20,000 nucleotides of DNA from an uncultured virus (IMG/VR IMGVR_UViG_3300037153_000398) (IMGVR_UViG_3300037153_000398); one strand, 5' to 3'; counted from the stretch's first letter, positions 1-19,497 are shown. The notes: a model not told the origin generated them from the letters alone. Translations and numbers: made by a program.

Positions 1-573
1 AAGGCCGGGCTCGCCTTGCGCACCGGCTTCGCCTTGCAAGCCGCGCTCGCCCTGCGGACCTTGCTCGCCGCGCTCGCCCTGCGCACCGGCCTCGCCGCGC
101 TCGCCGGCTTCACCGCGCTCGCCCGGATCGCCGGGCCGTCCCTCGATGCCGCGCACGCCAGCGGGGCCGGACTCGCCGCGCTCGCCGGCCGGGCCTTGCT
201 CTCCGGGCTCGCCACGGTCGCCAGCCGGACCACGCTCGCCGGGCTCGCCGGGCTCACCATGGTCGCCACGTTCGCCGCGCTCGCCGCGCTCGCCGGCAGG
301 CCCTTGCGGGCCGGTATCGCCGTTGCGCACCTGCGCCAGCCGGTCAAGCACGTCGCGCGATGTCGTGGCGCGCAGCTCGACGATGGTGGCGCGCAGCTCG
401 GCGATGGCAGCGTGCGCCTGCGCTTCGATCAGCGCCCGCTCACGCGCCCACTGATCGCGCTCTTCGCGCAGCACGTCACCAAGCGCCTCGCGCCACGCCT
501 CAAGCAATACGTCGGCGGCGGGACCGGGCGGCGGCTGCAATGACGTTTCGTGCTTCCCGTTGGATGTCGTCAC
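1..573 (-). CDS. Collagen-like protein with N-terminal helical segment (3' end beyond window)
   Basis: Not in the ORF track. Read by hand from GTG at 573: ...[32 protein letters not shown]..., then about 35 uninterrupted Gly-X-Y triplets ([18 protein letters not shown]...) from 321 to the edge. It overlaps the portal 3' end and the start codon is uncertain. Confidence 0.85.
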
Positions 574-1936
574 GGCTTGGCCTGTTGTCGTTGCTGATCG
601 GCTGACCGCCAGCGGGCGGCGGTGCCGCTGGCGCGTTCGGTCCCGGCGCGCTCGGGATCGCGGCGGCAGCGGACAAGGGCACGACTTGTTGCTGCACACG
701 CGGCTCGCTGCCGTATGGAACGGCTTCAAGATTCTCTTGGGCACGCGCTTCGTTCGGCGCGTAGATGCCGCCCTGCACACCGCGCGCCAGCGACTCGATG
801 CGATCCTTCAGCGACGAGCGCAGCAGCGCATCGGTCGAGAATTCGACGTACTCATCGGGCTGGCCGGCGTTGAGCCCGAACAACAAACCGAAAGCTTCCT
901 CGATGTGATTGAGCGCAAAGCCGAGCCCGGTGGCAATCCATGACTGCATCAGCACTTCGGTCGAGCTGTAGGCCGTCGTCCCGAGCCCAAGAATTTGCAG
1001 CGGCACGCGATAGGCCAGCGCGACGTGCTGATCAGACAGCTTCATCATCTCGGCAATCTCGGCATCCTTGCCCGAGACGCCCCACGGCTGCACCTTCAAG
1101 CCTGCGGTCAGGATCGGCGTGCCGCCCGCGTAGATCGCCCTTGATTGCTCGTTCCAACGGTCGCGCAACGCTTGAACCTGATCCTTGTCGAGCACGAGGT
1201 CGGTCGACAGCACCGCCGAGGGTCGGGCCTGATTGTTGTAGAAGCCGACCTGTTGCTTCAACATCGCTTCCATCGTCAGCACGTCGCCATACGCCGCCAT
1301 CAGCGGCGTCTCGCCGACCAGCGGATACGGCCAGCGCGAGCGCGAGACGTGCAGACGGAAGTGCAGAACGTCGCGGGCGGGCACCAACACCGGCTCATTG
1401 CCGATGCGGTAGTTGACGACGTGATTGCCGCCCATGCGGTAGAAGACATCGCCGGTCGTTGCGACCTGCGGCCACGACAGCATCGGATTCATGATGTGCA
1501 GTTGGGCTATCTCGTAGCGCGCGTTGCGGATCGCCAGCGCGTAGCCGTTGCCCTGCAGATACATGCAGCGGACCATATTGAGCAAAAAGTCCGACGTGGT
1601 CTGATAATCGTTCGGCTGTTTGAGAATGCGCGACAGCGACGAAGTCGTGACGCGGTCGCGCCCGCCGTCGTCGCGCTTACGCCAATGATCGCCGGGGCAC
1701 ATAGCGATGGTCTGCGCGTAAGCCGAGATGCACGCTTCGACGATGGCAGACTGCGCGGTTTGCGGAATCGGCAGGCCCCCGCACTGCCACCAATTCCACA
1801 CGCTGCCGACTTCCTGCGGCAACCATCCGCCAGTTATCGGGAGCCACCACGGGCCGGGCGTGTAATCGCCATCCGCTCGCGTTCGCAAGCGGCCTAGCGC
1901 GCCAGCGGCCCGTGACAGCAATGCAGGCAGACGCAT
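500..1936 (-). CDS. Phage portal protein (HK97 family)
   Basis: Motifs [59 protein letters not shown] and [13 protein letters not shown] 1936 overlaps the upstream stop (TGATG), so it is preferred over the track start at 2128. Confidence 0.93.
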
Positions 1937-2265
1937 CAGCTCGACGCCCCGCCGTGATGTTGCGTCCCGCGCGACGGGCCTGGACCTGCGGTGCGGGTCT
2001 GGTAGCCGGCGTCCGGCTTGTTGCCGGCCGGCTCCAAGGCCCGCGCGTTGCGCAGGACGGCAGGGTCGGGACCGCTGCCGTCGTCTTCCTTGTGCGCCAC
2101 GCTCGCACCACACGCCGCAAGATCGCACTCTTGCTGCGTCGGCGTCGGCTTGACGTTTTGCCGCTTCGTCACGGCCTCGACCGTCTTTTCCTTGTCGGCG
2201 GTCGACTTCGCGACTTGCTCCTTCGCGGCGGCGTCGTGCTTCTCCTGCACGTCTTTGTCAGCCAT
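1936..2265 (-). CDS. Hypothetical head-cluster protein (109 aa)
   Basis: Strong RBS (AAAGGAAGG) upstream. It lies between capsid and portal and is coupled to the portal start. Contains KPTPTQQECDLAA..EDDGSGPDP. Confidence 0.8.
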   Translation of the reverse strand: MADKDVQEKHDAAAKEQVAKSTADKEKTVEAVTKRQNVKPTPTQQECDLAACGASVAHKEDDGSGPDPAVLRNARALEPAGNKPDAGYQTRTAGPGPSRGTQHHGGASS

Positions 2266-2344: not shown

Positions 2345-4879
2345 TTAGGCCCACGTCACTCCGGACATCCACTGCACCATGCCGGGACGGCGGTAGGCCC
2401 AGTTCATCGGTAGCAGCATTCGAACGCCAATCGTATCCGTCTGCCAGAGCGAACGAGTCGGAACGGCAGGGACAGGCGTGCCGGTGGTGCCGCCGATGAT
2501 GGCGAGCGGAGCCGTATCTTCCATGTGAAGGACAGCCTGATCGCTCACGTCGAAGCGCGGAGCGGCTTCGGTGACGCTGGCGAAGTCAGCGCAGTCCAAG
2601 AGGATCATCGTGCCCGCCGGCACGCTTGCCGACTTCACGATGGGGAACGACATCAACGTGCCGCGCGCGATTTCCTCGCGGAACGGCAGGATGCCGACAG
2701 TGGTCGGAGTCAACGCCGCAGCCGCGACCAGGGACGGCGACATCAGCCACACCGGATCGCGCAGATTGCCCAACGTCGACACATTCAACGCATCGATTAG
2801 CAACTTGATGTCGCCGATCAGCGCGTTGATGCCGCCGCCAGCGGTCGGCGTCAGCCCGGTGGTGCCGTTGAGCAGGCCGGGCGGCCGGACGGCGGTCGCC
2901 GCGTTCTGGTCGAGCAACACGCTATCGAGCGAGATGGCCGTGTCGTTGGTGATCGCTTCGCGGATCAGCCCTTCGATGGCCGGCGTCGAGTGTTCGGCCA
3001 GCTCGCGGGTGAAGGTCGAGATGACGGCCATCTTTTTGGGCGTCAACTGGACGGTCGCGAACGCGCCTTGACGCACCGGGATGGGCGCGCCTTCGCCGAC
3101 GAACGAGCCGGCGATTTGCGGCGTCTGATTACGCATCGGCAGGTTGATCACGCCGTTGCGTCCGAAGGTGAAGCTCTGGCCGCGTCGCGCAATCTCGGGG
3201 AAGACCGAGAACGGCAACAGGGCTTCGATGAAGTCCGTCCACACCTGCGTCACGAGTTCGGCCGCCCATCCCGGCGCAACGATGGTCGCCGGCACGGAAG
3301 CGTTGCGCGTGACAAGGTTCATCACGGTGCGCGTCGCTTCGTCCTCGCCGTAGTGCTCTTTCAGGATTTCGAGGATCGGGCGCTTGTGCTGTTCGTGATG
3401 GTGGATGACCTGCAGAGTGAGCGCGCGCCACATGTAGTCTTGCGGCCGAACCTTCTTCGCAGGGATGGCGAACGGACGCGGGTGAGCGACCGCAAGGGTG
3501 CCTTCACCGCCACCACCGCCGCCGTTCTGATACAGCATGACGTTGCGGGCCTCGATGTGCTCGGGGCCGACACTCGCCACCGCAAGACGCGCTTCGGCTT
3601 CCTGCAAGGTCGCCAGCGTCTTGTCTTCCTGTGCGATCCGCGCGTTCAGCTCTTGCGTGGTCGCCATATCGGCGTCGCTGACGTTTTCGTCATTGACGTT
3701 TTTCAGATGCTCCGTGAGTTGGTCCTGATAGCGCACCAATCGCTGTTGCGATGCCTGGATGCGCTGGCCCAACGGCGAATTGCCGTTCATGGCTCGTCTC
3801 TCAAAGCGAGAGGGGTCGTGGCGGGCTTGCCGGTGGTTTCGCCGACGACGCGCGCTATCGCCTTGTTTGCTGCCGGGCTTGGCAAAGACGATGTCGAGCG
3901 TTGCGGACGAAATGTTGAGAGACTTCGCAACAGACAAAGCGTTCGGATTGGCCGGAACGCTGACCAGCGAAGTCTCGACTAGCTCTTGTTTCAGATACCG
4001 CTCGCCGCCGAAGGGGTTGCCCTTTTGCAGCGGCTCGGATTCGAGCGCGCGGAATCCGACCGACACCGCCTTGAGGATGCCGGCGTCGATCAGCTTGCGG
4101 ATTTCATCGATGCGCGGCGACGTGCCGGCCGGCGCGAGCTGCAGATGGCCGCGCAGCGCGCCCTTGTCGACGCGCAGATTGGCCCATTTGCCAATCGGAA
4201 AATCCGAGTGATGGTTGAACAGCGCGATGGGATTTTTCTTGAAGTTCTCCAAATCCCATCCGGTCGCCGAGATGATGTCGCCCAGGCGGTCGGGCGTTTC
4301 GTCGGACAGAATGAATTCCATCCCGTTGACGGTTTCGGCGTGCGTCTTGTGGCGCACGCGGTTGCCGGCGAACGTGTGCAGCCCGCCCGGCCGGCCGGGG
4401 ATGCTGGCCTCTTCCCACATGATCGAGCAGCGGTCGGTCGCGGCGTCTTCGTCGATGTCGTCGTCTTGCTCCATCAAGGCGTTGACGCAGTCGTCCATCC
4501 AGTCGTCGTAATCGTCGACATCCGGATCGGGCGGCTCGACTTGTTTGAGATGCTTGCCGGTGGGATCGGACGTGTCCCACATCAGCCGGCAGTATTCGTT
4601 GGCCGCGTCCTGCGCCATGCCGCTGGTCATGCAATTGAGCACGCAGCGCGACATGAAGCCGGCTTGATCCTCGCCGTTGCTCGGCGCGTCCTGTTTGACC
4701 TTGGCGTTGAGCACGCCCTTTGGCTTCGGCTCGCCCTTTTCGTCGCGCCACATCGTCAGACACGCGGCGACGGCCTGATCCTGCGGGCGCTTCTGGCCAC
4801 CGTCCTGCCCCATCATCTCGGGCACGCAGCGGCGCATCCAATCGTCTTGCTTTTCGTCTTTACCGGGCTTGATTGGCAT
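2345..4879 (-). CDS. Fused HK97-type prohead protease (S78-like) and major capsid protein
   Basis: Protease motifs FILSDETPDRLGDII, NPIALFNH, AVSVGF and ETSLVSVPANPNA, then a coiled-coil delta-like region and capsid motifs (FVGEGAPIP, LTPKKMAVISTFTRELAE, SLWQTDTIGVRM). The probable start is ATG 4879 (GGAG RBS), but the frame is open up to 5272. A possible internal capsid start lies at 3790. Confidence 0.92.
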   Translation of the reverse strand: MPIKPGKDEKQDDWMRRCVPEMMGQDGGQKRPQDQAVAACLTMWRDEKGEPKPKGVLNAKVKQDAPSNGEDQAGFMSRCVLNCMTSGMAQDAANEYCRLMWDTSDPTGKHLKQVEPPDPDVDDYDDWMDDCVNALMEQDDDIDEDAATDRCSIMWEEASIPGRPGGLHTFAGNRVRHKTHAETVNGMEFILSDETPDRLGDIISATGWDLENFKKNPIALFNHHSDFPIGKWANLRVDKGALRGHLQLAPAGTSPRIDEIRKLIDAGILKAVSVGFRALESEPLQKGNPFGGERYLKQELVETSLVSVPANPNALSVAKSLNISSATLDIVFAKPGSKQGDSARRRRNHRQARHDPSRFERRAMNGNSPLGQRIQASQQRLVRYQDQLTEHLKNVNDENVSDADMATTQELNARIAQEDKTLATLQEAEARLAVASVGPEHIEARNVMLYQNGGGGGGEGTLAVAHPRPFAIPAKKVRPQDYMWRALTLQVIHHHEQHKRPILEILKEHYGEDEATRTVMNLVTRNASVPATIVAPGWAAELVTQVWTDFIEALLPFSVFPEIARRGQSFTFGRNGVINLPMRNQTPQIAGSFVGEGAPIPVRQGAFATVQLTPKKMAVISTFTRELAEHSTPAIEGLIREAITNDTAISLDSVLLDQNAATAVRPPGLLNGTTGLTPTAGGGINALIGDIKLLIDALNVSTLGNLRDPVWLMSPSLVAAAALTPTTVGILPFREEIARGTLMSFPIVKSASVPAGTMILLDCADFASVTEAAPRFDVSDQAVLHMEDTAPLAIIGGTTGTPVPAVPTRSLWQTDTIGVRMLLPMNWAYRRPGMVQWMSGVTWA

Positions 4880-5272
4880 GACGCTCTCCACAAGGTTGGC
4901 GTCGCCGGTCCCCTTCAGCGTCACAGTGTTTGTTTGGTCGCGCGGTTGGCTGCCGCGCAGCTTGAGCAAACGGGCGGCTTCGGCGCGGATCGCCGACCAC
5001 GACTGCTGCACCGGGCCGCCGCTCGGGCCGCCGCTGCTGCCGCCGCCGTTGTCGCCGCCACCGCCGCCGCCCTTCGGCTTCGGCGCGATCCGCGCGAGCT
5101 GCGCTGGCGTGATGCCAAGCCGCAGCGCGACGGCGTCGCTGGCGGCCTTGGCCGCCGCGTCATCGCCATCGTTCAAGATCGGGTTGTGCAGGTCCGCGTC
5201 GCGGCGCTGGTCGTTCTGTTCGTAGAAGAATTCTTGCGCCGGACTACTTTTTCGCTTTGCCGACGTAGGCAT
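4880..5272 (-). CDS. 131-codon segment in frame with the protease-capsid gene (small protein or N-terminal extension)
   Basis: ATG 5272 overlaps the end of the 794-aa gene. The first ~65 aa look like a small helical domain, followed by a Gly/Ser linker. There is no stop before 4879. Confidence 0.5.
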
Positions 5273-7628: not shown

Positions 7629-7684
7629 GTCCGAATTCCCTTGTTTTTCAGCGGTTCCGCCAAGGCAATAAAGATCGTGGCCGC

Positions 7685-7742
7685 CTTGAAGGGGCCATTT
7701 TGGCCCCCCATATTATTCCTTGGAAGGGGCCATATAGGTCCC
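7685..7742 (+). promoter_or_regulatory. Putative promoter of the plus-strand operon with two operator-like palindromes
   Basis: TTGAAG(7686)-N17-CATATT(7709), also readable as CTTGAA-N15-CCCCATAT (RpoH-like). Palindrome GGGGCCATTTTGGCCCC at 7691-7707 and a degenerate copy GGGGCCATATAGGTCCC at 7726-7742. Confidence 0.6.
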
Positions 7743-7895
7743 TGGTTCACCGCCGGACACGGCCCCTTCGCGGCCTTTGCAAGTCCGGTGCGCCTCTCCA
7801 AGCCGTCAGCCCGCCGAAGCCAGTAGGCCAAAGGAAGATCGGGAAACGCGCCGTGAGAAGCCCCGTCTAATACGAGGCGGACTCCAACAAGACAC

Positions 7896-7986
7896 CACTG
7901 ACGGCGGCGCGCGGATCGCGCCGTCTCACAGTGTTGCACTTGCAATGCTCGCCGCGACACGCGGCGTTCTCAAACGGAGTCACACA
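7896..7986 (+). repeat. Structured intergenic leader element, copy A (divergent)
   Basis: CACTG..GC stem..CAGTG; alternative stem AGTGTTGC/GCAATGCT; hairpin CGCCGCG-ACA-CGCGGCG; AACGGAGTCAC at 7973-7983. Confidence 0.7.
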
Positions 7987-9012
7987 ATGGAAACCGCAAA
8001 CATCCTCGAAAATCTTTTCGAGGTCAGCATGGACCGCGCTGCGATCCTGTTGCGGCACTACACCGACGCGGGCCAGCCGGTTTTTCTTTGGGGCAAGCCC
8101 GGCATCGGCAAGACCGACATCGCGCATCAGCTCGGCGCGGAGACGAAGCGCAAGGTCATCGAATTCCATGCCGCGCTACGCGAGCCGGTCGACGTGCGCG
8201 GCGTGCCGAGCGTGGTCAACGGCCTGACACGCTGGAACGTGCCCGACGAATTGCCGCGCGTCGAGCGCGACGGCGAAGAGGGCTATCTGTTCCTCGACGA
8301 ATACAATCAAGCCTCGCTGCAGATGCAGTCGGTGCTTGGCGGGCTGGTCCTCTACGGCACGGTCGGCGACTACCGGCTGCCGAAAGGCTGGCGCATCATT
8401 GCGGCGGGCAATCGCGTCAGCGACCGCGCCGCTGCGCAACGGATGCCCTCGCACATCAAGGGCCGCTTCGTTCACATCGCGTGCGTCGCGAACGTCAAGG
8501 CGTGGGCCGATTGGGCGACCAAAAACGGCGTCGCCCCGGAAGTCGTCGCCTTCGTTCGCTTCCGGCCCGAGCTGCTGCACCGGATGCCGCGCGGCGACGA
8601 AGCGGCATATCCGTCGCCCCGCACTATCGTTCGCGCCGCCAAGCATGTGAATGCGCCGGCCGAGATTCGTCAGCAACTCTTCGCAGGCGCAATCGGCTGC
8701 GATGTCGCTGGCGAGCTGGAAGGCTACATTCGGCTTTATCGCTCCATCGGGACGCTCGAAGACATCGTCGCGCATCCTGACACGGCGACCATCCCGACCG
8801 AGCCGTCCGAACGGTACGCGGTCTGCACCGGGCTCGCGCGTCTCGCGACGCGAAAGAACTTCAGCAACATCATCAAATACGCCGACCGCTTGGCCGGCGA
8901 GCCGAAGATGTTGCTCGTTCACGACGCCACCACGCGCGACCCGTCGCTGAAAGAGACGGCCCATTACTCGAAGTGGGCGGTCGAGAACGGCGACATGATC
9001 CTGCAGTCGTGA
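7987..9012 (+). CDS. AAA+ ATPase (MoxR/AAA_5-like)
   Basis: Walker A WGKPGIGKT, Walker B LFLDEYNQ, IIAAGNR and PSPRT. ATG 7987 follows the GGAG RBS motif. Confidence 0.9.
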   Translation: METANILENLFEVSMDRAAILLRHYTDAGQPVFLWGKPGIGKTDIAHQLGAETKRKVIEFHAALREPVDVRGVPSVVNGLTRWNVPDELPRVERDGEEGYLFLDEYNQASLQMQSVLGGLVLYGTVGDYRLPKGWRIIAAGNRVSDRAAAQRMPSHIKGRFVHIACVANVKAWADWATKNGVAPEVVAFVRFRPELLHRMPRGDEAAYPSPRTIVRAAKHVNAPAEIRQQLFAGAIGCDVAGELEGYIRLYRSIGTLEDIVAHPDTATIPTEPSERYAVCTGLARLATRKNFSNIIKYADRLAGEPKMLLVHDATTRDPSLKETAHYSKWAVENGDMILQS

Positions 9013-9112
9013 TGATCGCTACAGGCCGGCGCTTCGTTGCGCCGGCCGATAGTGTTCACCCGAACGCTGCCCGGCAAACGGGCCTTTCAACTTCCAACGG
9101 AGTCACACAACA
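9013..9112 (+). repeat. Structured intergenic leader element, copy B
   Basis: TGATCGCTA-CA-GGCCGGCGC-loop-GCGCCGGCC-GA-TAGTGTTCA; alternative partner GAACGCT; hairpin GCCCG/CGGGC; AACGGAGTCAC at 9096-9106. Confidence 0.9.
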
Positions 9113-10024
9113 ATGCCGAAGAGAATCGCGTCACCGTTGTCGCGCAAGGCGACGCTGGTCGCTGTGGAAATTTCGCAGTGGACGGCGCGCAAGTACGACA
9201 AGCGCGTCACCGAAAAGGTCAACCGCGAGCACGGTGCGGCCGAAGACGCCGGGCGCTACAACAAGCTGCTCATTCAGGCGGATCGCCTGAAGCGCATCAA
9301 CTGCCTCGTGTCGCAGGCCCGGACGCTGCACTACAAGTACACGAAACCGTGGGCCGACGAAGGCTTGCGCATCCTGCCGAACACTCTGCACGCCAAATTC
9401 GCCGACGAGTTTCGCGTCATCAAGCGCGAGTTTGATGAAGCGGCCGACGACTTCGCCCGCGACTATCCGGTCTTCGTTGAAGAGCGGAAGCGCGAGCTGA
9501 ACGGCCTCTTCAATGAAGGCGACTATCCTGCGCCCGGCGACATCCGGGCCAAGTTTCGCCTGAAGATCAAACCGTACCCGGTGCCGGAAGCCGACGACTT
9601 CCGCTCCGATACGCTCGACGACGACACGCTCGACGACATCAGGCGCGAGCTGATGGACGCCCACGCCGACGCGGCGACGGCCGTGACCCAAGACACGGTC
9701 AAGCAAATCGTCGACGTGGTCGGGCACATGAGCGAAAAGCTGAAAGCCTACACGGGCGGTCAGCCGGGCGACGACGACGAAGACAGGTCGAAGCCCAAAA
9801 ACTTCTTCACCGACTCGCTGGTCGGCAACGTGCGGTCGCTCGCCGAGCTGCTGCCGCACTTCAATCTGCACGATGATCCGAAACTGAAAAAGATCATCGG
9901 CCGCATCCAACGCGAGCTGTGCGTCGAGGAAGCGGCCACGCTGCGCGAGAACGAGAAAGCGCGCGCCGTGGTGCAGAAAAGCGCCGACGACATCCTGCGC
10001 GATGTCAATGCGCTTCTCGGCTGA
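9113..10024 (+). CDS. Helical phage protein, DUF3150-like
   Basis: 303 aa between the AAA and vWA genes. Motifs VEISQWTARKYDK, NKLL, TKPWADEGLRILP, FARDYP, LFNEGDYP and FNLHDDP are typical of the middle gene of this trio (from memory). Confidence 0.7.
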   Translation: MPKRIASPLSRKATLVAVEISQWTARKYDKRVTEKVNREHGAAEDAGRYNKLLIQADRLKRINCLVSQARTLHYKYTKPWADEGLRILPNTLHAKFADEFRVIKREFDEAADDFARDYPVFVEERKRELNGLFNEGDYPAPGDIRAKFRLKIKPYPVPEADDFRSDTLDDDTLDDIRRELMDAHADAATAVTQDTVKQIVDVVGHMSEKLKAYTGGQPGDDDEDRSKPKNFFTDSLVGNVRSLAELLPHFNLHDDPKLKKIIGRIQRELCVEEAATLRENEKARAVVQKSADDILRDVNALLG

Positions 10025-10086
10025 TCAAACAAACCACCGCTTCGGCCAATCCCGGCCGAAGCCGCCAACCGGAGTCACAAAACGCA

Positions 10087-11625
10087 ATGTCAGAGATTGA
10101 CAGGGCAGCCGCCGAGCGCGTCATGCGCGCGCGTGCCGAGCTGATTCAGAGCCACACGTTTTACGGCGTGCTGGTTTCGAATGTCGAGCCGAAGCCGTCG
10201 CGGGTTTTCCCGACGATGGCGACCAACGGCGCGACCCACTTCTACAATCCCGACTACATCATGAAGCTGACGCCGAAACAGGTACTCGGCGTGCAGCGGC
10301 ATGAGAGCGAGCACGACGGCCGCCGCCACCATACGCGGCGCGGCAAGCGCGATCCGAGGGAATGGAATATCTGCACCGACTTGGCCATCAACATCGACTT
10401 GGTCGACGAAGGTGTCGAGCTTCCGCCCGGCGCGCTGGTCGACGCGAAATATCGCGGCTGGTCGGCCGAAGACATCTACCGCGCTCGCGAGCTGGACCGC
10501 CTAAAGGAACAGCAAGAGCAAGAGAAGCAACGCCAGCAACAAAACCCCTCGCAAGATGCCGAAGACGGCAAGAGCGGCGGCGATGGCGATGGCGACGACG
10601 GCGACCGCGAACAACAGCCGGACGGCGGCGACGCTGATCAACAGCCGGACGGCGACCGCGATCAAGATGGCGACGACGGCGACACGCATGGCGACAAGCC
10701 CGGCGATGACGAAGCCGACGAAGCCGGCGACGCGGAAGGCCAAGGCGGCGGCGAGCCCGGCGAAGAGCCCGGCGACGAAGCCGGTGCAGCCGGCAGCGAC
10801 GACGCTTCCGGTAATGAACCGAGCGACGAAGCTGCCGGCGCGAGCGCCGCTGATGGCGGCGCGGACGGCGAACCGGACGGGCAAACGTCCAGCGCGCCGA
10901 TGTCGTGCGGCGATCCGGGCGGCTGCGGCGAAGTGCTCGACGCACCCGCCGAAGAGCCGGCCGACATCGCCGACGAAGACGGCAAGTGGGAACGGATATT
11001 GCGCCAAGCCGCTTCGCTCGCGGCCAAGCGCGGCAACGCTCCCGGTCATGTCTCTCGCGAAATCGAGCGGGCCGATAAGCCGCCGCAAGACTGGCGCGAG
11101 ACGTTGCGCGCGTGGTTCGATCAAGGCGCGGCGCGCATCGAAACCTGGGCGCGGCCCAATCGTCGCTTTATCAGCTCCGGAATCTACCTGCCGGGCTCGC
11201 AACGCGACGGCATCAACCGCGCCGTCTTCCTGATCGATACATCCGGCTCGATGGACAAGATCGCGCTCGCTTGCATCAACACGGAAGCACAAGCCGCACT
11301 CGACGAAGGCATCATCGACGAAGCCGTCGTCATCTATGGTGACACGCGCGTCACCCGAGTCGACACTTACCGCAGCGGGGACCAAATCGAATTCGATCCT
11401 CGCGGCGGCGGCGGGACCAGATTAAACCCGCTGTTCGATTACGTGCGCGATCAGCTCGACGACGTGTCACTGATCGTTTGCTTCACCGACATGGAAATCG
11501 GCGATCCCGGCCCCGAGCCGGCCGCGCCGGTCCTGTTCGCGGCGACGGGCTATCCCGACAAGGTGCGGCGCTATCTCGCCGATGCACCGTGGGGCGCGCC
11601 CGGCATCGATGTCGGCTCGCATTGA
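10087..11625 (+). CDS. DUF2201-like protein: HExxH putative metallopeptidase, acidic linker, vWA domain
   Basis: TMATNG, HESEH, WNICTDLAIN; ~130-aa Asp/Glu/Gly linker; MIDAS motif IDTSGSM, GGGGT and FTD. ATG 10087 follows CCGGAGTCAC. Confidence 0.88.
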   Translation: MSEIDRAAAERVMRARAELIQSHTFYGVLVSNVEPKPSRVFPTMATNGATHFYNPDYIMKLTPKQVLGVQRHESEHDGRRHHTRRGKRDPREWNICTDLAINIDLVDEGVELPPGALVDAKYRGWSAEDIYRARELDRLKEQQEQEKQRQQQNPSQDAEDGKSGGDGDGDDGDREQQPDGGDADQQPDGDRDQDGDDGDTHGDKPGDDEADEAGDAEGQGGGEPGEEPGDEAGAAGSDDASGNEPSDEAAGASAADGGADGEPDGQTSSAPMSCGDPGGCGEVLDAPAEEPADIADEDGKWERILRQAASLAAKRGNAPGHVSREIERADKPPQDWRETLRAWFDQGAARIETWARPNRRFISSGIYLPGSQRDGINRAVFLIDTSGSMDKIALACINTEAQAALDEGIIDEAVVIYGDTRVTRVDTYRSGDQIEFDPRGGGGTRLNPLFDYVRDQLDDVSLIVCFTDMEIGDPGPEPAAPVLFAATGYPDKVRRYLADAPWGAPGIDVGSH

Positions 11626-11721
11626 GCACTAAGGGCGGCGGCTTCGGCCGCCGCCTCGTAGTGTTCATTCCGGACACTCGCCGCACTGCGCGGCGGCATC
11701 AAACAAACCGAGTCACACAGA
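11623..11721 (+). repeat. Structured intergenic leader element, copy C
   Basis: TGAGCACTA-AG-GGCGGCGGC-TTCG-GCCGCCGCC-TCG-TAGTGTTCA; alternative partner GGACACT; hairpin CGCCGC/GCGGCG; ACCGAGTCAC. Confidence 0.88.
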
Positions 11722-12117
11722 ATGTCAGAACCTTGCGAACCTTTTGGCCCCGACTATCCGCGCGAGCTTGGCGCGGCGGTCGCCCGTTTCCGAACCGCTG
11801 CGCGGCGCGGCGGCGTCAAGAGCAAAGCCGAGAAGCACGCTTACGGCGACGCGGTCGGCAACGCCATCTTGGCGCTACAGCGGCGCGAGCTGATGGCCTG
11901 CCTCAAGCCGGCCAATCCGAAGATCAACTGCGCGAGCGGCACCGTCTACAACACGGGTGCCGAAATTCACGCGGCGCTTCGCCGACAGCAACGCAATGCG
12001 CTCGCCAACTATCCGAGCGCCGTGCGCCGGGCTCGCACGCCCGAGCAATGGCGCAAGATGTACGCTGACGCGATGAAGCAAAAACGCGCGCGGCTTGCGC
12101 TGCAGGCCGCCGCATAA
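11722..12117 (+). CDS. Hypothetical basic protein (131 aa)
   Basis: Directly follows leader copy C and fills the gap to the next RBS motif. Confidence 0.75.
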   Translation: MSEPCEPFGPDYPRELGAAVARFRTAARRGGVKSKAEKHAYGDAVGNAILALQRRELMACLKPANPKINCASGTVYNTGAEIHAALRRQQRNALANYPSAVRRARTPEQWRKMYADAMKQKRARLALQAAA

Positions 12118-12135
12118 ACACCAACGGAGTCACCA

Positions 12136-12414
12136 ATGATCACGCCTACCGAACGCCAGCTTATCCACGACATCGCCGACCGCGCGAGCAAGCTTTACGA
12201 AGCGCACGGCGTCAAGGTCGCGCCGCCGTTCATCGCGACGGAGCTGGAAATCGTACACGACAAGGTGTGCGCACTTCGGCTCGCCGAATTGCGCGACGCC
12301 AAGGATGTCGACCTTGCGCACGACATCGCCGGCATTCACGACCACCTGCAATCGGAGCCCGGCCGGCGCGGCACCTACAGGCTCGACGGCTTCTCGCCGC
12401 GTTTCAGGAAGTGA
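12136..12414 (+). CDS. Small phage protein, DUF6874-like
   Basis: IADRA...H..C.LRL.EL..A...DLAHDIAGI..HL...F.PRF pattern; AACGGAGTCAC upstream. Confidence 0.7.
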   Translation: MITPTERQLIHDIADRASKLYEAHGVKVAPPFIATELEIVHDKVCALRLAELRDAKDVDLAHDIAGIHDHLQSEPGRRGTYRLDGFSPRFRK

Positions 12415-12599
12415 GCAACCAAATGCGCGACCTGCGTGACCGCCTTGGCGAAGCGTTACGACGCCATCGCCACGGCCTCATTCGCCCGCTGTGGGCCGAT
12501 ATGAACGAGCCGGATCGCGAAGCCTACCGGCGAGCGGCCGACATGTTTGTTAGGACCGCGAACGGCGTCGGCATCGTCATTACAACAAGCGAGGAATGA
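12411..12599 (+). CDS. Hypothetical protein (~60 aa)
   Basis: GTGA overlap with the upstream stop (alternative ATG at 12423); LWADMNEPDREAYRRAA; its stop begins leader copy D. Confidence 0.65.
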   Translation: MSNQMRDLRDRLGEALRRHRHGLIRPLWADMNEPDREAYRRAADMFVRTANGVGIVITTSEE

Positions 12600-12693
12600 C
12601 CGCTACAGGCCAGCGCCGCGCGCGCTGGCCGATAGTGCTCATTCGAGCACACGCCGCCATGCCAAGCGGCGACACCCCCAACGGAGTCACAAC
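12597..12693 (+). repeat. Structured intergenic leader element, copy D
   Basis: TGACCGCTA-CA-GGCCAGCGC-loop-GCGCTGGCC-GA-TAGTGCTCA; alternative partner GAGCAC; hairpin CGCCGC/GCGGCG; AACGGAGTCAC at 12680-12690. Confidence 0.9.
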
Positions 12694-13107
12694 ATGATCC
12701 AACCGAAAACCATCACGCTGGTCCGCGCCGAAGGGCTGATCGCCGAGTGCGACCGGCCAGAAACCGCGAAGACCTGGGCGCACGCGAACGCGATCCTGTT
12801 TCGCTGGTCGCGAACCGCGCCCGAGCACGGCGGCTATGACAAGTGCGACTTCACCATCATCTTCGAAGATGGCTACGAGTACAAAGGCCGCTACGACCTG
12901 ATGCACTACAGGCGCGAGCATCCGGACCTTGCCCGGCACGTCCGCAGCTTCATGCGGTATCTTGCCGGCGAACTGCCGGAATGGTGCGTCGAGCAAAAGG
13001 ACATCGAGCGCGTGCGCCGGCACCAACAATCGCTTGGCGAAGAGTCGAAGCGCGAAGCGGTGGCGTGGCTCGAAACCCACGACTGCGGTCAGGCGGTCAA
13101 GTCATGA
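12694..13107 (+). CDS. Stand-alone LPD25-like (large polyvalent protein-associated domain) protein
   Basis: GGYDKCDFTIIFEDGYEYKGRYDL matches the remembered LPD25 signature GYDKT.F.I...G..Y.GR.D. Confidence 0.65.
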   Translation: MIQPKTITLVRAEGLIAECDRPETAKTWAHANAILFRWSRTAPEHGGYDKCDFTIIFEDGYEYKGRYDLMHYRREHPDLARHVRSFMRYLAGELPEWCVEQKDIERVRRHQQSLGEESKREAVAWLETHDCGQAVKS

Positions 13108-13217
13108 GCGTTTGGCTTACTGCCTTGGCCCTCTACTTGTCGCCGACCGTGATCATCCTCGCGGTGGTCGCGGTCATCGTGATCGCGGATCGCCTTCGAC
13201 GACGGAGACAGCCATGA
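13104..13217 (+). CDS. Small single-pass membrane protein (37 aa)
   Basis: MSVWLTALALYLSPTVIILAVVAVIVIADRLRRRRQP; ATGA-coupled at both ends. Confidence 0.7.
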   Translation: MSVWLTALALYLSPTVIILAVVAVIVIADRLRRRRQP

Positions 13218-13459
13218 GCCGCAAACGCGAAGACATGTCCCTGCCGTGGAAGAGTCCGTACTGGACGCGCGCCCGCACGGGCGACCACGTCTACGACGCC
13301 AACGATCCGCGCCACGCGGCGCGGCTTAACGCCATCCACAACGGCATCGCCTACGTCCGGTTTTTCGACACCGGCTACAAGGGCGAAATCAAGCTCGACG
13401 ATCTTCGCCAAGTCGGCAAGCGCCCCTTGGACAAGACCGAAGACTCGCCGTGGCTATGA
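13214..13459 (+). CDS. Hypothetical protein, possibly SH3/KOW-like barrel (81 aa)
   Basis: GGAG RBS; ATGA-coupled at both ends; GDHV...AYVRFFDTG...IKLDDLR pattern. Confidence 0.65.
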   Translation: MSRKREDMSLPWKSPYWTRARTGDHVYDANDPRHAARLNAIHNGIAYVRFFDTGYKGEIKLDDLRQVGKRPLDKTEDSPWL

Positions 13460-13716
13460 GCGGGCCTCTGCCTATCCAATCGCGGATGGCCCGCGCCGGC
13501 TTGCGGTGGGGCATTCGCGACCTTGCCCGCGCCGCCAAGGTGTCGGTCGACACCGTCGTCCGTTTCGAGCGCGGCGAAGAGCTGAAGGCCAGAACGGTCG
13601 AAGCTCTTCAACGCGCCTTCGAGCTGGCCGGCGTCGAATTCACCACGGGCGACCGGCCGGGCCTGCGCTTGTCCGCAAACGATTGTCGCGGCCGAACAAG
13701 TCCTAATGACCGTTGA
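13456..13716 (+). CDS. XRE-family HTH transcriptional regulator
   Basis: QSRMARAGLRWGIRDLARAAKVSVDTVVRFERG...ALQRAFELAGVEF...PGLRL, a type common in Alphaproteobacteria. Confidence 0.9.
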   Translation: MSGPLPIQSRMARAGLRWGIRDLARAAKVSVDTVVRFERGEELKARTVEALQRAFELAGVEFTTGDRPGLRLSANDCRGRTSPNDR

Positions 13717-13817
13717 GCTGCTACAGGCCAGCGTGCGCGACGTGCGTGCGCTGGCCGATAGTGCTCACCGAGCACTCGCCGCCAACGCGCGGCGCACCAA
13801 ACCAAAACGGAGTCACC
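13714..13817 (+). repeat. Structured intergenic leader element, copy E
   Basis: TGAGCTGCTA-CA-GGCCAGCGT...GCGCTGGCC-GA-TAGTGCTCA; alternative partner GAGCACT; hairpin CGCCGC/GCGGCG; AACGGAGTCAC at 13806-13816. Confidence 0.9.
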
Positions 13818-14018
13818 ATGACCAAGAAACAGACGGCCGGCCACAAGGCCGCCGCCACCCGTCGCCGTCGCGCGGCCGGCCGCAAGGCCGCCGTCACCCG
13901 TCGCCGTCGCAAGGCCGCCCATAAGGCTCACGCAACACGCCGGCACCGGAAAGCGACACGTCGCCGGGCTGCGCTCAAAGCGCACGCCACGCGGCGGCGC
14001 ACGGCGCGGAAGTCGTAA
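13818..14018 (+). CDS. Protamine/histone H1-like highly basic protein (66 aa)
   Basis: Four A-[AG]-x-KA-x-[AV]-TRR repeats, no acidic residues, conserved RBS motif before ATG 13818. Confidence 0.75.
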   Translation: MTKKQTAGHKAAATRRRRAAGRKAAVTRRRRKAAHKAHATRRHRKATRRRAALKAHATRRRTARKS

Positions 14019-14052
14019 AGTCGAATCAAACAATGCAAAAACGGAGTCATCA

Positions 14053-14439
14053 ATGAGAAAGCTACTTTTCGCGCTCGCCGTCACAGCGGCGGCGGTTCTG
14101 CCGGCGCACGCCGACATGGACTCGGACTATCACAACAAGCTGAACCAGCAGCTCGATATGGAGAAAGCCGTACAACAGCTCGACCGGCGCACCGATCAGT
14201 TCAGCAACTATCTTGGCGCATTGACGCAGGCGCAACTCGGCAACGTCTATCGTCGGCTGACGCCCTACATCGATCAGAGCCACACCGACTGCAACTCTTC
14301 GGGACACAAGCTGGCGTTCTGCATGTTGCTCGGCGCGGTGCAACACTGCGTCCATGTCAACTTCGGCGACATCAAGGAAAGCGACCCTGACATGATCGCC
14401 ATGTGTCGCTGGATCGATGCCACGAAGACCACGAATTAA
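14053..14439 (+). CDS. Secreted/periplasmic protein with four Cys (128 aa)
   Basis: Signal peptide MRKLLFALAVTAAAVLPAHA-; AACGGAGTCAT upstream. Confidence 0.8.
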   Translation: MRKLLFALAVTAAAVLPAHADMDSDYHNKLNQQLDMEKAVQQLDRRTDQFSNYLGALTQAQLGNVYRRLTPYIDQSHTDCNSSGHKLAFCMLLGAVQHCVHVNFGDIKESDPDMIAMCRWIDATKTTN

Positions 14440-14452
14440 AGCGACGACGATC

Positions 14453-14498
14453 AACCCCGGTCGGGCCGCGTTCGCGCGCGGTCCTGCCGGGGTTTTTT
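14453..14498 (+). terminator. Rho-independent terminator closing the plus-strand operon
   Basis: CCCCGG..GGGCCGCG-loop-CGCGGTCC..CCGGGG stem followed by TTTTTT. Confidence 0.85.
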
Positions 14499-14574
14499 AT
14501 TGGTTGCGCCGGATCGCGACCCCAAGGCATTTACGTTAAGAATTGTCTTGGCTTGGTTTTTCAAACCCGGCCAA

Positions 14575-16581: not shown

Positions 16582-16929
16582 TCAGCATCCGGTCTTCGCC
16601 TTGATCGCCCACATGACCGACTCTTCGAGCTTGGTCAGCGCCAGCGACAGCTCGCGACCGCCCGGCAGCACCGAGTAGAGCCGTTCCAGCTCTTGCGCCT
16701 TGGCCTTGATGCGGTCGTGAATGATAATTTCGTCCGGCATCAAGTGCCGGTACACGGGATTAAAGCGCGTCACCGCGAGCGGCGGATGCAGCGGCTCGGC
16801 GGGCTCGCGCTGCGGTTCGGGCTCTTGGTTGCCCTGCGCTTGCTCGGCGGCTTGATCGCCGGCTTGCTCGCCCTGCGGCTTGTTGAATGCGCCCATGCCG
16901 GTCGGTTCGACGGCTGCCATGCAAGTCAT
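16582..16929 (-). CDS. Acb2/Tad1-like helical hairpin protein (putative anti-defence nucleotide sponge)
   Basis: YRHLMPDEIIIHDRIKAKAQELERL resembles the Acb2 N-terminal helix; RELSLALTKLEESVMW resembles the Tad1-type helix. ATGA-coupled start at 16929. Confidence 0.65.
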   Translation of the reverse strand: MTCMAAVEPTGMGAFNKPQGEQAGDQAAEQAQGNQEPEPQREPAEPLHPPLAVTRFNPVYRHLMPDEIIIHDRIKAKAQELERLYSVLPGGRELSLALTKLEESVMWAIKAKTGC

Positions 16930-17186
16930 TCCCGATCTTGGCCAGCTTGGCCGGTGTGCGTTCGCCGTCGCCGATCCGGCGCGATGAAGCCGGCATAGTA
17001 TTCGCGCGGCGTCTTGAAGCGGTCCCATCGCACGGTCGGCGAGCCGAAGCGGTCGACCTTGACGACGACGCCGCTCTGTTGATGCCGCGTCTTCGGAAAC
17101 AGGTTCGCGGCGATGCCGTGGGCGCTTGGCCGCACGCGCTGGCCAGCCCGGAAGCGTGGCGTGCGTGCCAGCATCCGCGCGATCAT
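16926..17186 (-). CDS. Hypothetical protein, SH3/KOW-like pattern
   Basis: FRAGQRVR...GVVVKVD...TVRWD; ATGA-coupled at both ends. Confidence 0.65.
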   Translation of the reverse strand: MIARMLARTPRFRAGQRVRPSAHGIAANLFPKTRHQQSGVVVKVDRFGSPTVRWDRFKTPREYYAGFIAPDRRRRTHTGQAGQDRE

Positions 17187-17404
17187 GTGCCGGCCGCATC
17201 CTCGCCGTCGTGATCGCCGCTGCGCTTCGGCTCCATCCGGTCGCCGATGGCCGCCGCAAACGACTCGTTGGCGAGCGCCACGGTGGCGGCGGCGATGATG
17301 AAGCCGCATTCGCGATAGTCGGCGGTGTCGACGGCGCTGGCGTCGCCGTGGCGTTCGATGATCATGCGCGCGGCGTGGCGCGCCCACTCGGTCGGGCTGG
17401 TCAT
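17183..17404 (-). CDS. Hypothetical protein (73 aa)
   Basis: AAGGGG RBS; coupled to the downstream gene. Confidence 0.65.
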   Translation of the reverse strand: MTSPTEWARHAARMIIERHGDASAVDTADYRECGFIIAAATVALANESFAAAIGDRMEPKRSGDHDGEDAAGT

Positions 17405-17749: not shown

Positions 17750-17953
17750 TTACGTCCCTCTGGTTTGCAGTGTGACCAGCTCTTCGAGCGCGTCGGCGAT
17801 GCGATTGATGTCGCACAACACCTGGGCGGCGCAGCCGGTCGGCTCGCGCGCCAGCTCGGCCATCTCGCGCGGATCGTCGACGCCGGCCCGGCCTGCGGCA
17901 GCCCTGACGTTGTGCATCGCCCCGCAAATCTGTTCGCGCTCTTGCCGGCTCAT
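17750..17953 (-). CDS. Hypothetical protein (67 aa)
   Basis: ATG 17953 overlaps the terL stop (ATGA) and abuts the next gene. Confidence 0.65.
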   Translation of the reverse strand: MSRQEREQICGAMHNVRAAAGRAGVDDPREMAELAREPTGCAAQVLCDINRIADALEELVTLQTRGT

Positions 17954-19497
17954 GCGATCAGGGCCTCGATGTCGATGGGCTTTTGTTTGGTCGGTGCGAC
18001 GCCGGCCGCCATGACCAGGGCGACCGCGCCGTCGATGCGGCCGGTCGATTTTTTCTTCGAGAGCTTGCGGTTGCCGGCCGGGTCGCGCTCGATCACGGAA
18101 TTCATCACGCACGCGGTCAGCGGCGGATTGTTGCCGTGGCGCAGTTTCTTTTCGAGCACGATGGTTTCCAGCTCGCGGATCGCGGGCGACATGCTCGCCC
18201 ATCCCTGCCGGAATTCGACGAAGTGATCCTTGATCGCCTGCTCGGTGAAGCCGGCCGCGAGAAGCCACGGCTTGAGCTGCGCAAAATTCCACTTGTCGAA
18301 GGCGAGCTTGGCGACGCGGCACCGCTTGAAAACGTTGTTGTAGAGATGCCGCGCAACGTACTCGTAGCTGACCACCGGGCCGGGCGGCGCGATCAGATAA
18401 CCTTGCTTCTCCCAAAGGTCATACGGCGTTCGGTCGCGCAGGCTCTTGTCGGCGAGATTATCCTTCGGCAGCCAAAACGTCGGCTCGGCGTCCCACATGC
18501 CGTCGAGCTGGCCGATCAGCACGAGCGCCGTCAGGTCGGCCGTCTCTGACAGGTCGAGCCCGCCGAAGACTTCGCGGCCGTCGAGCGGGACAACGTCGCC
18601 GCCGCAGGCTTTCCAGGGACCGGGCGCGATGAACGGCGACAACGCCTGCACCCGCTGGTTCAAGACCAGATTGCGATACGCCGCTTCGCGTGCCGGCATT
18701 CGCCGCGCGTCGGCCGCCATCGCCAGAACTTCGACCGGGTTGAGAAAGTTGCCGAGCGCCGGATTGGCCAGCCGGATCGTCTCGATGTCGAAGATGTCGC
18801 CGGCAAAATCCTTCGGCACCGCATAGAGCGAACAGATAACACGCGGGTCGTGGCCGGCGAGCGCGTCGTCAATCAGGATCGATAGCAGGTCGTCGTCGCC
18901 GGGCGCTTGCGTCGAGATGACGATGGTCAGCGGATACTCTTGCGCGCCGGTCGCCGTCTCGACCGCTTCGTACAGCTCGGAGCGCGGCCCGCGCACCTGC
19001 CCTAGCTCATCGTGAATGGCGAAGACCGGCGACAGCCCGAACGCGGTGGCGGCTTCAGCAGACAGCGCGCGATACTCGGTGCCAAGCTCGGGGCAAACGA
19101 TTTGCTTATGACCATCTTTGATCAACAGTGTGTCGATCAGCACTGGCGACATCCTCGCCATCTTGCTCGCCAGATTGAAGATCAGCGCCGCCTGATCGCG
19201 GCTCTGTCCCGTCGAGTAGAGCTGGCTGTTGATCACCGCCACCGGGCCGCACAAGTGCGCCAAGAGCAGCATCGCCGCCAGACTCGTCTTGCCGTTCTTC
19301 CGACCGAACGACAGGATCGCGCGCCGCGTCCGGGCCGGGTTGTCGTAGATGCGCCGTATCTCGCGCTTCTGCCACGGCGACAGCTTCACCTTCGTCCCGA
19401 TCCACCGGCCCTCCGGAACGTACAGCTCCGTTTCGATCCACCGGATGATCGCGCTGCCAAGGCTTTCGGGTGTTGTTGTTTGCTCGGCTTGCTGCAT
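17950..19497 (-). CDS. terL: Terminase large subunit (Terminase_1 type)
   Basis: LSPWQ, Walker A GRKNGKT, Walker B AIHDELG, IVISTQ, nuclease GGLDLS, C-terminal RIDGAVALVMA. Confidence 0.96.
   Translation of the reverse strand: MQQAEQTTTPESLGSAIIRWIETELYVPEGRWIGTKVKLSPWQKREIRRIYDNPARTRRAILSFGRKNGKTSLAAMLLLAHLCGPVAVINSQLYSTGQSRDQAALIFNLASKMARMSPVLIDTLLIKDGHKQIVCPELGTEYRALSAEAATAFGLSPVFAIHDELGQVRGPRSELYEAVETATGAQEYPLTIVISTQAPGDDDLLSILIDDALAGHDPRVICSLYAVPKDFAGDIFDIETIRLANPALGNFLNPVEVLAMAADARRMPAREAAYRNLVLNQRVQALSPFIAPGPWKACGGDVVPLDGREVFGGLDLSETADLTALVLIGQLDGMWDAEPTFWLPKDNLADKSLRDRTPYDLWEKQGYLIAPPGPVVSYEYVARHLYNNVFKRCRVAKLAFDKWNFAQLKPWLLAAGFTEQAIKDHFVEFRQGWASMSPAIRELETIVLEKKLRHGNNPPLTACVMNSVIERDPAGNRKLSKKKSTGRIDGAVALVMAAGVAPTKQKPIDIEALIA

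Follow-up and report, generated by a model that had tools for sequence, protein, structure and literature searches.

Why would a phage operon carry the same structured element, of about 100 nucleotides, in its 5' leader and again directly behind the stop codons of successive gene groups? This question is raised by a 20,000-nucleotide stretch of DNA from an uncultured virus (IMG/VR IMGVR_UViG_3300037153_000398), hereafter the window, in which five copies of the element (A to E; Table 1) lie on the plus strand: one in the 5' leader and four between gene groups, where copies B-E occupy the entire spacer behind the stops at 9010, 11623, 12597 and 13714. The original prediction held that the upstream stop codon forms the base of a stem, that the opposite strand of this stem can pair instead with a downstream partner, and that a terminating ribosome or a nuclease cut would flip the RNA from the first fold to the second, thereby linking the expression or stability of each unit to translation of the previous one. 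We find the element to be real, conserved and not previously catalogued, with copies confirmed also outside the window, and comparison of the related sequences indicates that both competing helices are under selection as RNA. As for its role, we tentatively favor, with a confidence somewhat short of even, an mRNA punctuation signal of the phage operon that resembles the early RNase III sites of bacteriophage T7 and possesses a built-in second fold.

A repeated element at the gene borders of the operon

From 5' to 3', the element consists of the 5' strand of the lower stem P1, an internal loop, the upper stem H1, the 3' strand of P1 (doubling as the 5' strand of the hairpin P2), a third hairpin (H3), a CA-rich unpaired stretch, the ribosome site GGAGTCAC and, 5-10 nt later, ATG. 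P1 comprises 7-11 bp, position 4 frequently being mismatched, and its 5' strand begins with the upstream TGA; H1 is GC-rich, with 8-13 bp and a loop of free sequence; P2 has 6-8 bp and a loop of 3-6 nt; and H3 is a GC hairpin of 5-7 bp. In copies C, D and E, the TGA is at once the stop of the upstream open reading frame (ORF; 10087-11625, 12423-12599 and 13456-13716, respectively) and the first three bases of P1, and it pairs, as had been proposed, with the TCA of TAGTGyTCA, the P1 3' strand. At copy B, where a tandem TGATGA (9010-9015) had been pointed out, the first TGA is the in-frame stop of ORF 7987-9012 and the second starts P1. The TGA of copy A (7899-7901) ends no long ORF; the open frame in front of it has 14 codons. 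The downstream partner of the AGTGyTC strand is found in all five copies and co-varies with that strand from copy to copy; because both helices use this same strand, P1 and P2 are mutually exclusive, so that the pairing part of the original prediction is borne out, as are its individual readings of the sequence.

The motif TAGTGYT occurs six times in the window against 0.65 expected, a count reached by none of 200 shuffles, and all five copies fold better than their shuffled counterparts (z-scores of -3.3 to -4.6, with 0/200 shuffles as good). A covariance model run on the window returned exactly these five copies, on the plus strand, with 58-91 bits, the next match scoring 29 bits. In the RNAfold predictions, copies A and B adopt P2, and copies C, D and E adopt P1. 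A short form at the DUF3150-DUF2201/VWA junction has a folding z-score of -1.97 (14/200 shuffles as good), and a reduced form is also present at this junction in a related phage, G002.

The ribosome site GGAGTCAC is exact at 7976, 9099, 10071, 12126, 12683 and 13809 and has one mismatch at 11709 and 14043. Since it also precedes gene starts at junctions that have no element (10071, 12126 and, with one mismatch, 14043), it is a separate module. The site is far longer than a Shine-Dalgarno (SD) sequence requires, is retained with few changes in 39/39 related elements and is not used by the structural genes on the minus strand. Within it, GAGTC matches GANTC, the sequence methylated by CcrM-type enzymes in alphaproteobacteria.

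Rfam 15 contained no match to the element; the only match at E <= 1 was IRES_Bip, at 8654-8710, outside the elements, with 19.2 bits against a gathering score of 40. A limited keyword search of the literature found no description of the element. A simple scan of the plus strand found no intrinsic terminator (a GC-rich hairpin directly followed by a U tract) in the five window elements, and a scan of the window found no promoter-like site within them; only in relatives, and in many of these, does TTTCTC or TTTTT come after H3. Several known classes of element were considered and rejected. A selenocysteine insertion (SECIS) or readthrough signal would agree with the in-frame TAG 12-14 codons past the TGA in copies C, D and E, but this TAG is lacking in copy B and in several relatives. 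A K-turn or small ribozyme is disfavored by the internal loop, the sequence of which is not conserved, and by the absence of an Rfam match. As a promoter, the H3 loop CTTGCA, judged by eye, lacks an acceptable -10 element at 16-18 nt, and a sigma-54 site would not agree with its GG-N12-GC spacing. This CTTGCA loop is found in almost all copies from the relatives (e.g., L224:1571-1590; columns 107-115 of alignment A5) and in 0/5 copies of the window. The same hexamer serves G002 as the -35-like element in its predicted early promoter; inside the elements, no -10 follows it.

Conservation of two competing helices in related phages

A first covariance model (P1 + H1) was run over five whole viral records and gave 5-6 strong matches (E < 1e-9) in four of them and one in the fifth; within each record, the matches lie on one strand and within about 6 kb. 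The sixth viral record, an 8.8-kb fragment, contains eight matches, also on one strand. The phages thus have 5-8 copies each, the strong ones all on one strand, and for one of these phages, G002, the 64-kb genome is complete and has terminal repeats. A second model (H1 + P2 + H3) produced an alignment of 45 matches, 39 of them distinct elements, from the window, the six viral records and seven further metagenome contigs. A pattern assembled from the conserved parts found 14 loci in IMG/VR, all but one of which were genuine on inspection, and 41 loci in JGI metagenomes, about a quarter of them genuine. In species-representative genomes, an exact, stricter pattern found 17 loci, none of which had P1/H1 upstream on inspection, and these are chance matches. 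A first, loose scan yielded at least 124 loci, mostly by chance, with a P2-like partner in 17 matches among those listed. A DNA search of 50,697 phage records gave no match to the window. In a protein search with the operon's ATPase, the proteins of cultured phages were only about 30% identical; therefore, there is no cultured relative with transcript data. The five sequencing runs listed with the window sequence are all soil-metagenome DNA.

In the 39 distinct rows of the alignment, 96.4% of the cells of H1 are paired, with double changes at 9/9 pairs, and 95.6% of those of P2, with double changes at 6/7 pairs; the alignment was fitted to this structure, no shuffle reached the observed values and slid controls gave 36-48%. 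P1, to which the same alignment was not fitted, is paired in 82.4% of its cells and shows double changes at 5/9 pairs; its top pair is A-U in 22 rows and G-C in 7, and position 4 is unpaired in 26/39. The conservation and covariation of P2 on which the original prediction depended are thus present in the relatives. The shared strand contains AGTG in 36-38 of the 39 copies and in some copies is divergent, reading CCGCAGCA, TTGATGC, AGTGCGA or GTGTGC; the first two are unrelated in sequence to the usual strand. Because these copies are too divergent for column alignment, we compared the pairing energy of cognate strands with that of permuted partners: the cognate sum was -362.6 kcal/mol for P1 (permuted, -271.2) and -371.6 kcal/mol for P2 (permuted, -265.3), and in neither case was any of 5000 permutations as good. 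Both folds can also be obtained from every copy; in constrained folding, blocking one strand led to P1 in 39/39 copies and blocking the other led to P2 in 39/39.

The three helices contain 55 G.U cells and 13 A.C cells, and the covariance models give at most 33 bits on the opposite strand as compared with 54-100 bits on the sense strand. Since wobble pairs favor the plus strand, the structure is that of the sense RNA and not of a double-stranded DNA operator. The element thus contains two mutually exclusive helices, each of which bears the marks of selection.

Each array opens with a copy in a leader, downstream of a sigma-70-like promoter (in G002, CTTGCA-N17-TATAAT; in G003, CTTGCG-N17-TATAAT). 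The leaders of these two phages differ by indels of 14, 45 and 31 nt, and the leader is therefore not a conserved ORF. In four phages, the leader copies keep both P1 and P2 with compensatory changes, P1 being ACTT/AAGT, ACTC/GAGT or ACTG/CAGT. Only leader-type copies, five in number and from three lineages (the window; G002/G003/L169; and L078), possess an anti-SD sequence, GACUCC, 10-15 nt 5' of P1. It is complementary to GGAGUC of the SD (z-scores of -2.4 to -4.9 versus shuffles; the other 34 copies lie above -1.3), and at copy A the corresponding GACTCC is the sole occurrence on the plus strand of the window. In 4/4 leader copies folded, the minimum-free-energy structure is a junction closed by the anti-SD:SD helix around H1, P2 and H3. 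Leader copies of the relatives additionally contain a conserved mini-frame, ATG ACA GTG TGA (L224:1495-1506, L169:59-70 and the same place in L221), the ATG of which overlaps the anti-SD helix and the TGA of which abuts P1; it has no counterpart in the leader of the window.

Proposed processing with refolding, weighed against its alternatives

Two folds, their conservation, their geometry and the leader anti-SD are the observations from which the processing reading starts. The long hairpin of P1 and H1 has 16-22 bp in 36/39 copies (mode, 18-19), an internal loop separates P1 from H1 in 37/39 (2x2 in 16 and 1x2 in 12), and the distance from the top of the P1 3' strand to the start of P2 is 0-2 nt in 36/39. 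The family hence shows the two-turn hairpin, the internal loop and the leader and intercistronic placement on the sense strand that characterize RNase III signals of the T7 type. In the nascent polycistronic RNA, each element would fold first into the long interrupted hairpin P1-loop-H1, of approximately 18-20 bp or two helical turns, and a double-strand-specific host endonuclease, most likely RNase III, would cut it at or near the internal loop. H1 would stay with the upstream piece, as a hairpin at its 3' end. If the loop were cut on its 3' side, the newly made 5' end would carry the 5' strand of P2, and this former P1 strand would then refold into P2, which, as a 5'-terminal hairpin, would shield the 5' monophosphate of the downstream piece from 5'-end-dependent decay. 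H3 and the CA-rich linker would hold the ribosome site GGAGUCAC in a standard context. In the leader, the cut would separate the anti-SD GACUCC from the SD of the first gene, such that processing would switch on the first cistron.

The early transcript of T7 carries the RNase III sites R0.3, R0.5, R1, R1.1 and R1.3, one site lying in the leader of the early region and the others between groups of coupled genes. Like these sites, the element is an irregular two-turn hairpin with an internal loop, with one copy in the leader and others between mono- or oligocistronic units. As with T7, no RNase III gene was found in these phages (0/5 viral records), which would presumably rely on the host enzyme. 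Unlike the T7 sites, to which it has no sequence relationship, the element re-uses the 3' strand of its lower stem in P2, has a stop codon in that stem and an anti-SD in the leader, and its cleavage is only inferred. Stem-loops at the 5' terminus are known to stabilize mRNAs, as in ompA and, after papBA processing, in papA; work by Emory, Bouvet and Belasco in 1992 and by Bricker and Belasco in 1999 is said to have presented a 5'-terminal hairpin as a remedy against 5'-end-dependent decay. P2 would lie 0-2 nt from the presumed new 5' end, an arrangement that reportedly protects against 5'-end-dependent attack by RNase E; unlike P2, the ompA and papA hairpins do not compete with a processing substrate, and the protective fold described here is a predicted one. 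The cited part of PMC1540722 describes RNase III substrates as typically having two helical turns, or approximately 20 bp, with coaxial helices allowed; there and in the cited part of PMC3867540, internal loops are said to restrict the enzyme to cutting one strand, which leaves protective 3' hairpins. The same part of PMC3867540 describes rncO, which is also an irregular hairpin in a 5' UTR and is cut by RNase III, and in which the cut leaves an unstructured 5'-monophosphate end that invites RNase E and decay. P2, which would do the opposite, thus has a rationale.

Several points weigh against this reading. The cut, the enzyme and the stabilizing effect are inferred. In four leader copies (window A, L169:67, L198:991 and L209:906), the P2 state is predicted to be the more stable by 1.6-3.9 kcal/mol, and the leader-type copy L078:3508 leans to P2 by 1.3 kcal/mol; the substrate hairpin would therefore be only transient there, or be confined to a minority of molecules. 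The two states are close overall (median 2.4 kcal/mol in favor of P1, which is preferred in 30/39 copies), as they would also be in a regulatory switch. Covariation does not bear on the anti-SD, because the SD never varies. Finally, in 24/38 scored copies the stop of the longest nearby frame begins at a distance of 0-2 nt from the first P1 pair, a regularity that processing does not need and that the model explains only by compaction and by shared descent of the copies.

This stop-codon regularity counts for another reading, which we regard as unlikely: a ribosome that terminates at the UGA where P1 begins would keep the 5' strand of P1 in its mRNA channel and let the 3' strand form P2, so that expression or stability of the next unit depends on translation of the previous one. 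The 39th copy, which has no frame of at least 40 codons, was left out of the scoring, and the longest-frame rule placed window copy E (TAA 13704) among the 12/38 copies with a stop 2-25 nt 5' of P1; the Pfam match sets its stop at 13714, so that E belongs with the 24 and brings them to 25. In one copy, the stop lies inside P1. In the relatives, the TGA of P1 ends ORFs of 46-434 codons, both helices are conserved, and the near-isoenergetic states are distributed as expected if P1 were a default opened by the ribosome, intercistronic copies leaning to P1 and leader copies to P2. Where the stop lies 2-25 nt upstream, however, a terminating ribosome would not cover the whole P1 strand, and at L192:645 a TAA closes the gene 5 nt ahead of the P1 TGA, which is kept anyway. 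Hence a translated ORF does not end on the switch strand in every copy: the leader copies preserve a covarying P1 without a conserved upstream ORF, and the 14 codons ahead of the TGA in window copy A contain no ATG, GTG or TTG (by eye). The TGA is part of the repeated module, usually but not always serving as a stop.

Nor do the two states differ visibly in output. In the folding model, the SD is unpaired with a probability of 0.37 in the P1 state versus 0.41 in the P2 state (p = 0.056, n = 39; in 4/39 rows, the neighboring AGT was scored rather than the SD); as neither state hides the SD or the start and neither forms a terminator, the proposed switch is left without a visible output. The coding flank upstream of the intercistronic copies showed no supported pairing with the SD (1520/5000 permutations as good). 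In MS2-type translational coupling, an upstream ribosome opens a long-range structure that sequesters the SD. The element is similar in that an RNA structure links a stop with a downstream start and in that the leader copies sequester the SD; it differs in that the intercistronic copies hide the SD in neither fold and in that the leader has no conserved upstream ORF to open the helix. Of the two triggers originally proposed, the nuclease cut fits the evidence better, and the terminating ribosome is weakened by the leader copies, by the nearly equal exposure of the SD predicted for the two states and by the stops that lie upstream of P1, some of them by 4-12 nt. The terminating ribosome may nevertheless modulate P1, and since it must melt P1 in most copies, an influence of translation on processing is plausible. 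A combination of both ideas strikes us as quite unlikely: the junction would read upstream translation, forming the long hairpin and being cut when no ribosome arrives and forming P2 and staying intact when one terminates, such that translation would set the length and lifetime of mRNA segments and the anti-SD would lock the first cistron until the leader is processed.

If the RNA were not cut at all, the element might act as a passive intercistronic insulator or stabilizer, the hairpins of which block 3' exonucleases and Rho loading and standardize the context of the ribosome site, with the overlap of P1 and P2 arising from tight space. The three stable hairpins, unstructured CA-rich linker and invariant SD of every copy, the reduced junctions with only a hairpin and an SD (10022-10089; 35787 in G002) and the use of GGAGTCAC at junctions without an element all agree with this possibility, which we nonetheless hold to be rather unlikely: it leaves unexplained why one strand shared by two helices is kept through complete sequence turnover and why P2 starts at most 2 nt from the top of P1 in 36/39 copies, and the leader anti-SD would merely silence the first gene. 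The many copies per operon, the widespread AGTG of the shared strand and the H3 loop CTTGCA, highly conserved in relatives, could instead reflect an RNA operator, one fold of which is recognized by an RNA-binding protein of the phage or its host, for example an antiterminator or a translational repressor. This we consider very unlikely, given that the H1 and P2 loops and the internal loop are free in sequence and length, that the shared strand is wholly replaced in some copies with pairing kept, that none of the window copies has the CTTGCA loop and that none of the operon products was recognized as a candidate RNA-binding protein.

A site acting at the level of DNA appears highly improbable, be it an operator bound by a repressor (stoperator-like or palindromic) or a boundary at which gene cassettes recombine. 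The stoperators of cluster A mycobacteriophages, as described in the cited part of PMC9283540, are likewise present in many copies in short intergenic spaces at gene ends and oriented with transcription, and two genes for helix-turn-helix (HTH) proteins lie near the elements. Stoperators, however, are in that description 13-mer asymmetric DNA repressor sites with conserved sequence and no need for pairing, whereas the elements conserve RNA pairing, which survives sequence turnover; wobble cells outnumber A.C cells as given above, spacing is variable (the P2 loop spans 3-6 nt), the H1 sequence is free and several variants occur within one phage. The recombination variant draws on gene content. 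Around the ATPase-DUF3150-VWA core, the proteins of which are 44-76% identical between the window and the related phages, the elements lie at the same junctions, and the cassettes between them differ: only the 3 core genes and one weak match (13214-13459), of 12 window genes, were found in the compared loci, which covered approximately 8-10 kb per relative (G002, G003, G004, G006 and L078). On this sequence comparison, the elements appear to mark the borders of exchangeable gene cassettes, and recombination at them may be a by-product. The small genes of 11722-14439 have, within these compared loci, no homologues except for that weak match; the elements that flank them are nonetheless conserved.

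If the processing reading is correct, a group of uncultured soil and freshwater phages organizes its operon with a compact, reusable RNA module that ends one message, caps the next and, in the leader, unlocks the first gene. The T7 paradigm of punctuation by RNase III would then extend to unrelated phages, and a cut strand that refolds, in a conserved manner, into a 5' hairpin would be new relative to the T7 sites. With 39 distinct copies, abundant covariation and no Rfam entry, the family is ready for description as an RNA motif of its own. Built of modules (stop codon, processing hairpin, 5' hairpin, standby site and SD), the element is a natural counterpart of the synthetic insulators with which operons are made to behave predictably, and its two conserved, near-isoenergetic folds make it well suited to asking whether mRNA processing can be steered by the termination of translation.

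Operon and phage context

The window is phage DNA, with structural genes on the minus strand and a 6.5-kb operon on the plus strand. The operon encodes an AAA/MoxR-like ATPase, a DUF3150 protein, a DUF2201 metallopeptidase/VWA protein and the products of nine small genes, among them a DUF6874 gene, an LPD25-like gene and an HTH gene. Within one unit, neighboring genes overlap or are separated by a gap of 8-63 nt. Read by eye, the operon ends in a GC-rich hairpin followed by a T run, at approximately 14455-14499, a site that the simple terminator scan did not list.

Table 1. Copies of the element and other features of the window (paired strands separated by a slash; SD, ribosome site GGAGTCAC unless another sequence is given; bits, covariance-model score)
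Feature	Position	Strand	Score	Parts and remarks
Copy A, leader, before AAA ATPase gene	7880..7989	+	61 bits	anti-SD GACTCC 7880-7885; P1 7893-7900/7929-7936; H1 7903-7911/7917-7925; P2 AGTGTTGC 7930-7937/GCAATGCT 7942-7949; H3 7950-7956/7960-7966; SD 7976-7983; ATG 7987
Copy B, ATPase/DUF3150 junction	9010..9115	+	71.9 bits	stop TGA 9010-9012; P1 9013-9021/9050-9058, from second TGA 9013-9015; H1 9024-9032/9039-9047; P2 AGTGTTC 9051-9057/GAACGCT 9062-9068; H3 9069-9073/9079-9083; SD 9099-9106; ATG 9113
Copy C, behind DUF2201/VWA gene	11623..11724	+	91.4 bits	TGA 11623-11625 opens P1 11623-11631/11659-11667; H1 11633-11642/11647-11656; P2 AGTGTTC 11660-11666/GGACACT 11672-11678; H3 11679-11684/11690-11695; SD CGAGTCAC 11709-11716; ATG 11722
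Copy D	12597..12696	+	82.2 bits	TGA 12597-12599 opens P1 12597-12605/12633-12641 (C.C mismatch, position 4); H1 12608-12616/12622-12630; P2 GTGCTC 12635-12640/GAGCAC 12645-12650; H3 12653-12657/12666-12670; SD 12683-12690; ATG 12694
Copy E, behind HTH gene	13714..13820	+	57.8 bits	TGA 13714-13716 opens P1 13714-13723 (one bulged T)/13759-13767; H1 13726-13738/13744-13756; P2 AGTGCTC 13760-13766/GAGCACT 13770-13776; H3 13777-13782/13789-13794; SD 13809-13816; ATG 13818; HTH_31 match fixes frame ending 13716
Short form, DUF3150 to DUF2201/VWA junction	10022..10089	+		one hairpin 10039-10062; CA-rich stretch; SD 10071-10078; ATG 10087; without P1, H1 and P2
Operon, divided by elements into five units of 1-4 genes	7987..14439	+		(ATPase) (DUF3150 + DUF2201/VWA) (11722, 12136, 12423) (12694, 13104, 13214, 13456) (13818, 14053)
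Portal gene	500-2128	-		
Prohead protease-capsid fusion gene	2345-5272	-		
Large terminase gene	17950-19497	-		

Between its two domains, the DUF2201 metallopeptidase/VWA protein has a long, acidic, low-complexity insert rich in D, G, E and P (10500-10900, plus strand), which is built of imperfect 12-27-nt repeats (families D2-D4). The divergent region at 7640-7745, between the operon and a minus-strand gene ending at 7628, is AT-rich and contains two similar palindromes, GGGGCCATTTTGGCCCC (7691-7707) and GGGGCCATATAGGTCCC, which, from their sequence, resemble operators that would act on the operon's promoter.

On the minus strand, the protease-capsid fusion gene is a single ORF of 975 amino acids, with a prohead serine protease domain at residues 347-445 and an HK97-type capsid domain at 675-912. 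The gene at 16582-17259 (minus strand) encodes a 225-amino-acid protein with an Acb2/Tad1 hairpin domain at its C-terminus (PF24729, E 1.7e-14), and its product is a candidate sponge for the signaling nucleotides of defense systems. At the edge of the window, 4-330 contains 18 overlapping copies of a repeat with spacings of 9 and 18 nt (family D1), a pattern that suggests a triplet-periodic repeat protein, collagen-like or similar, on one strand.

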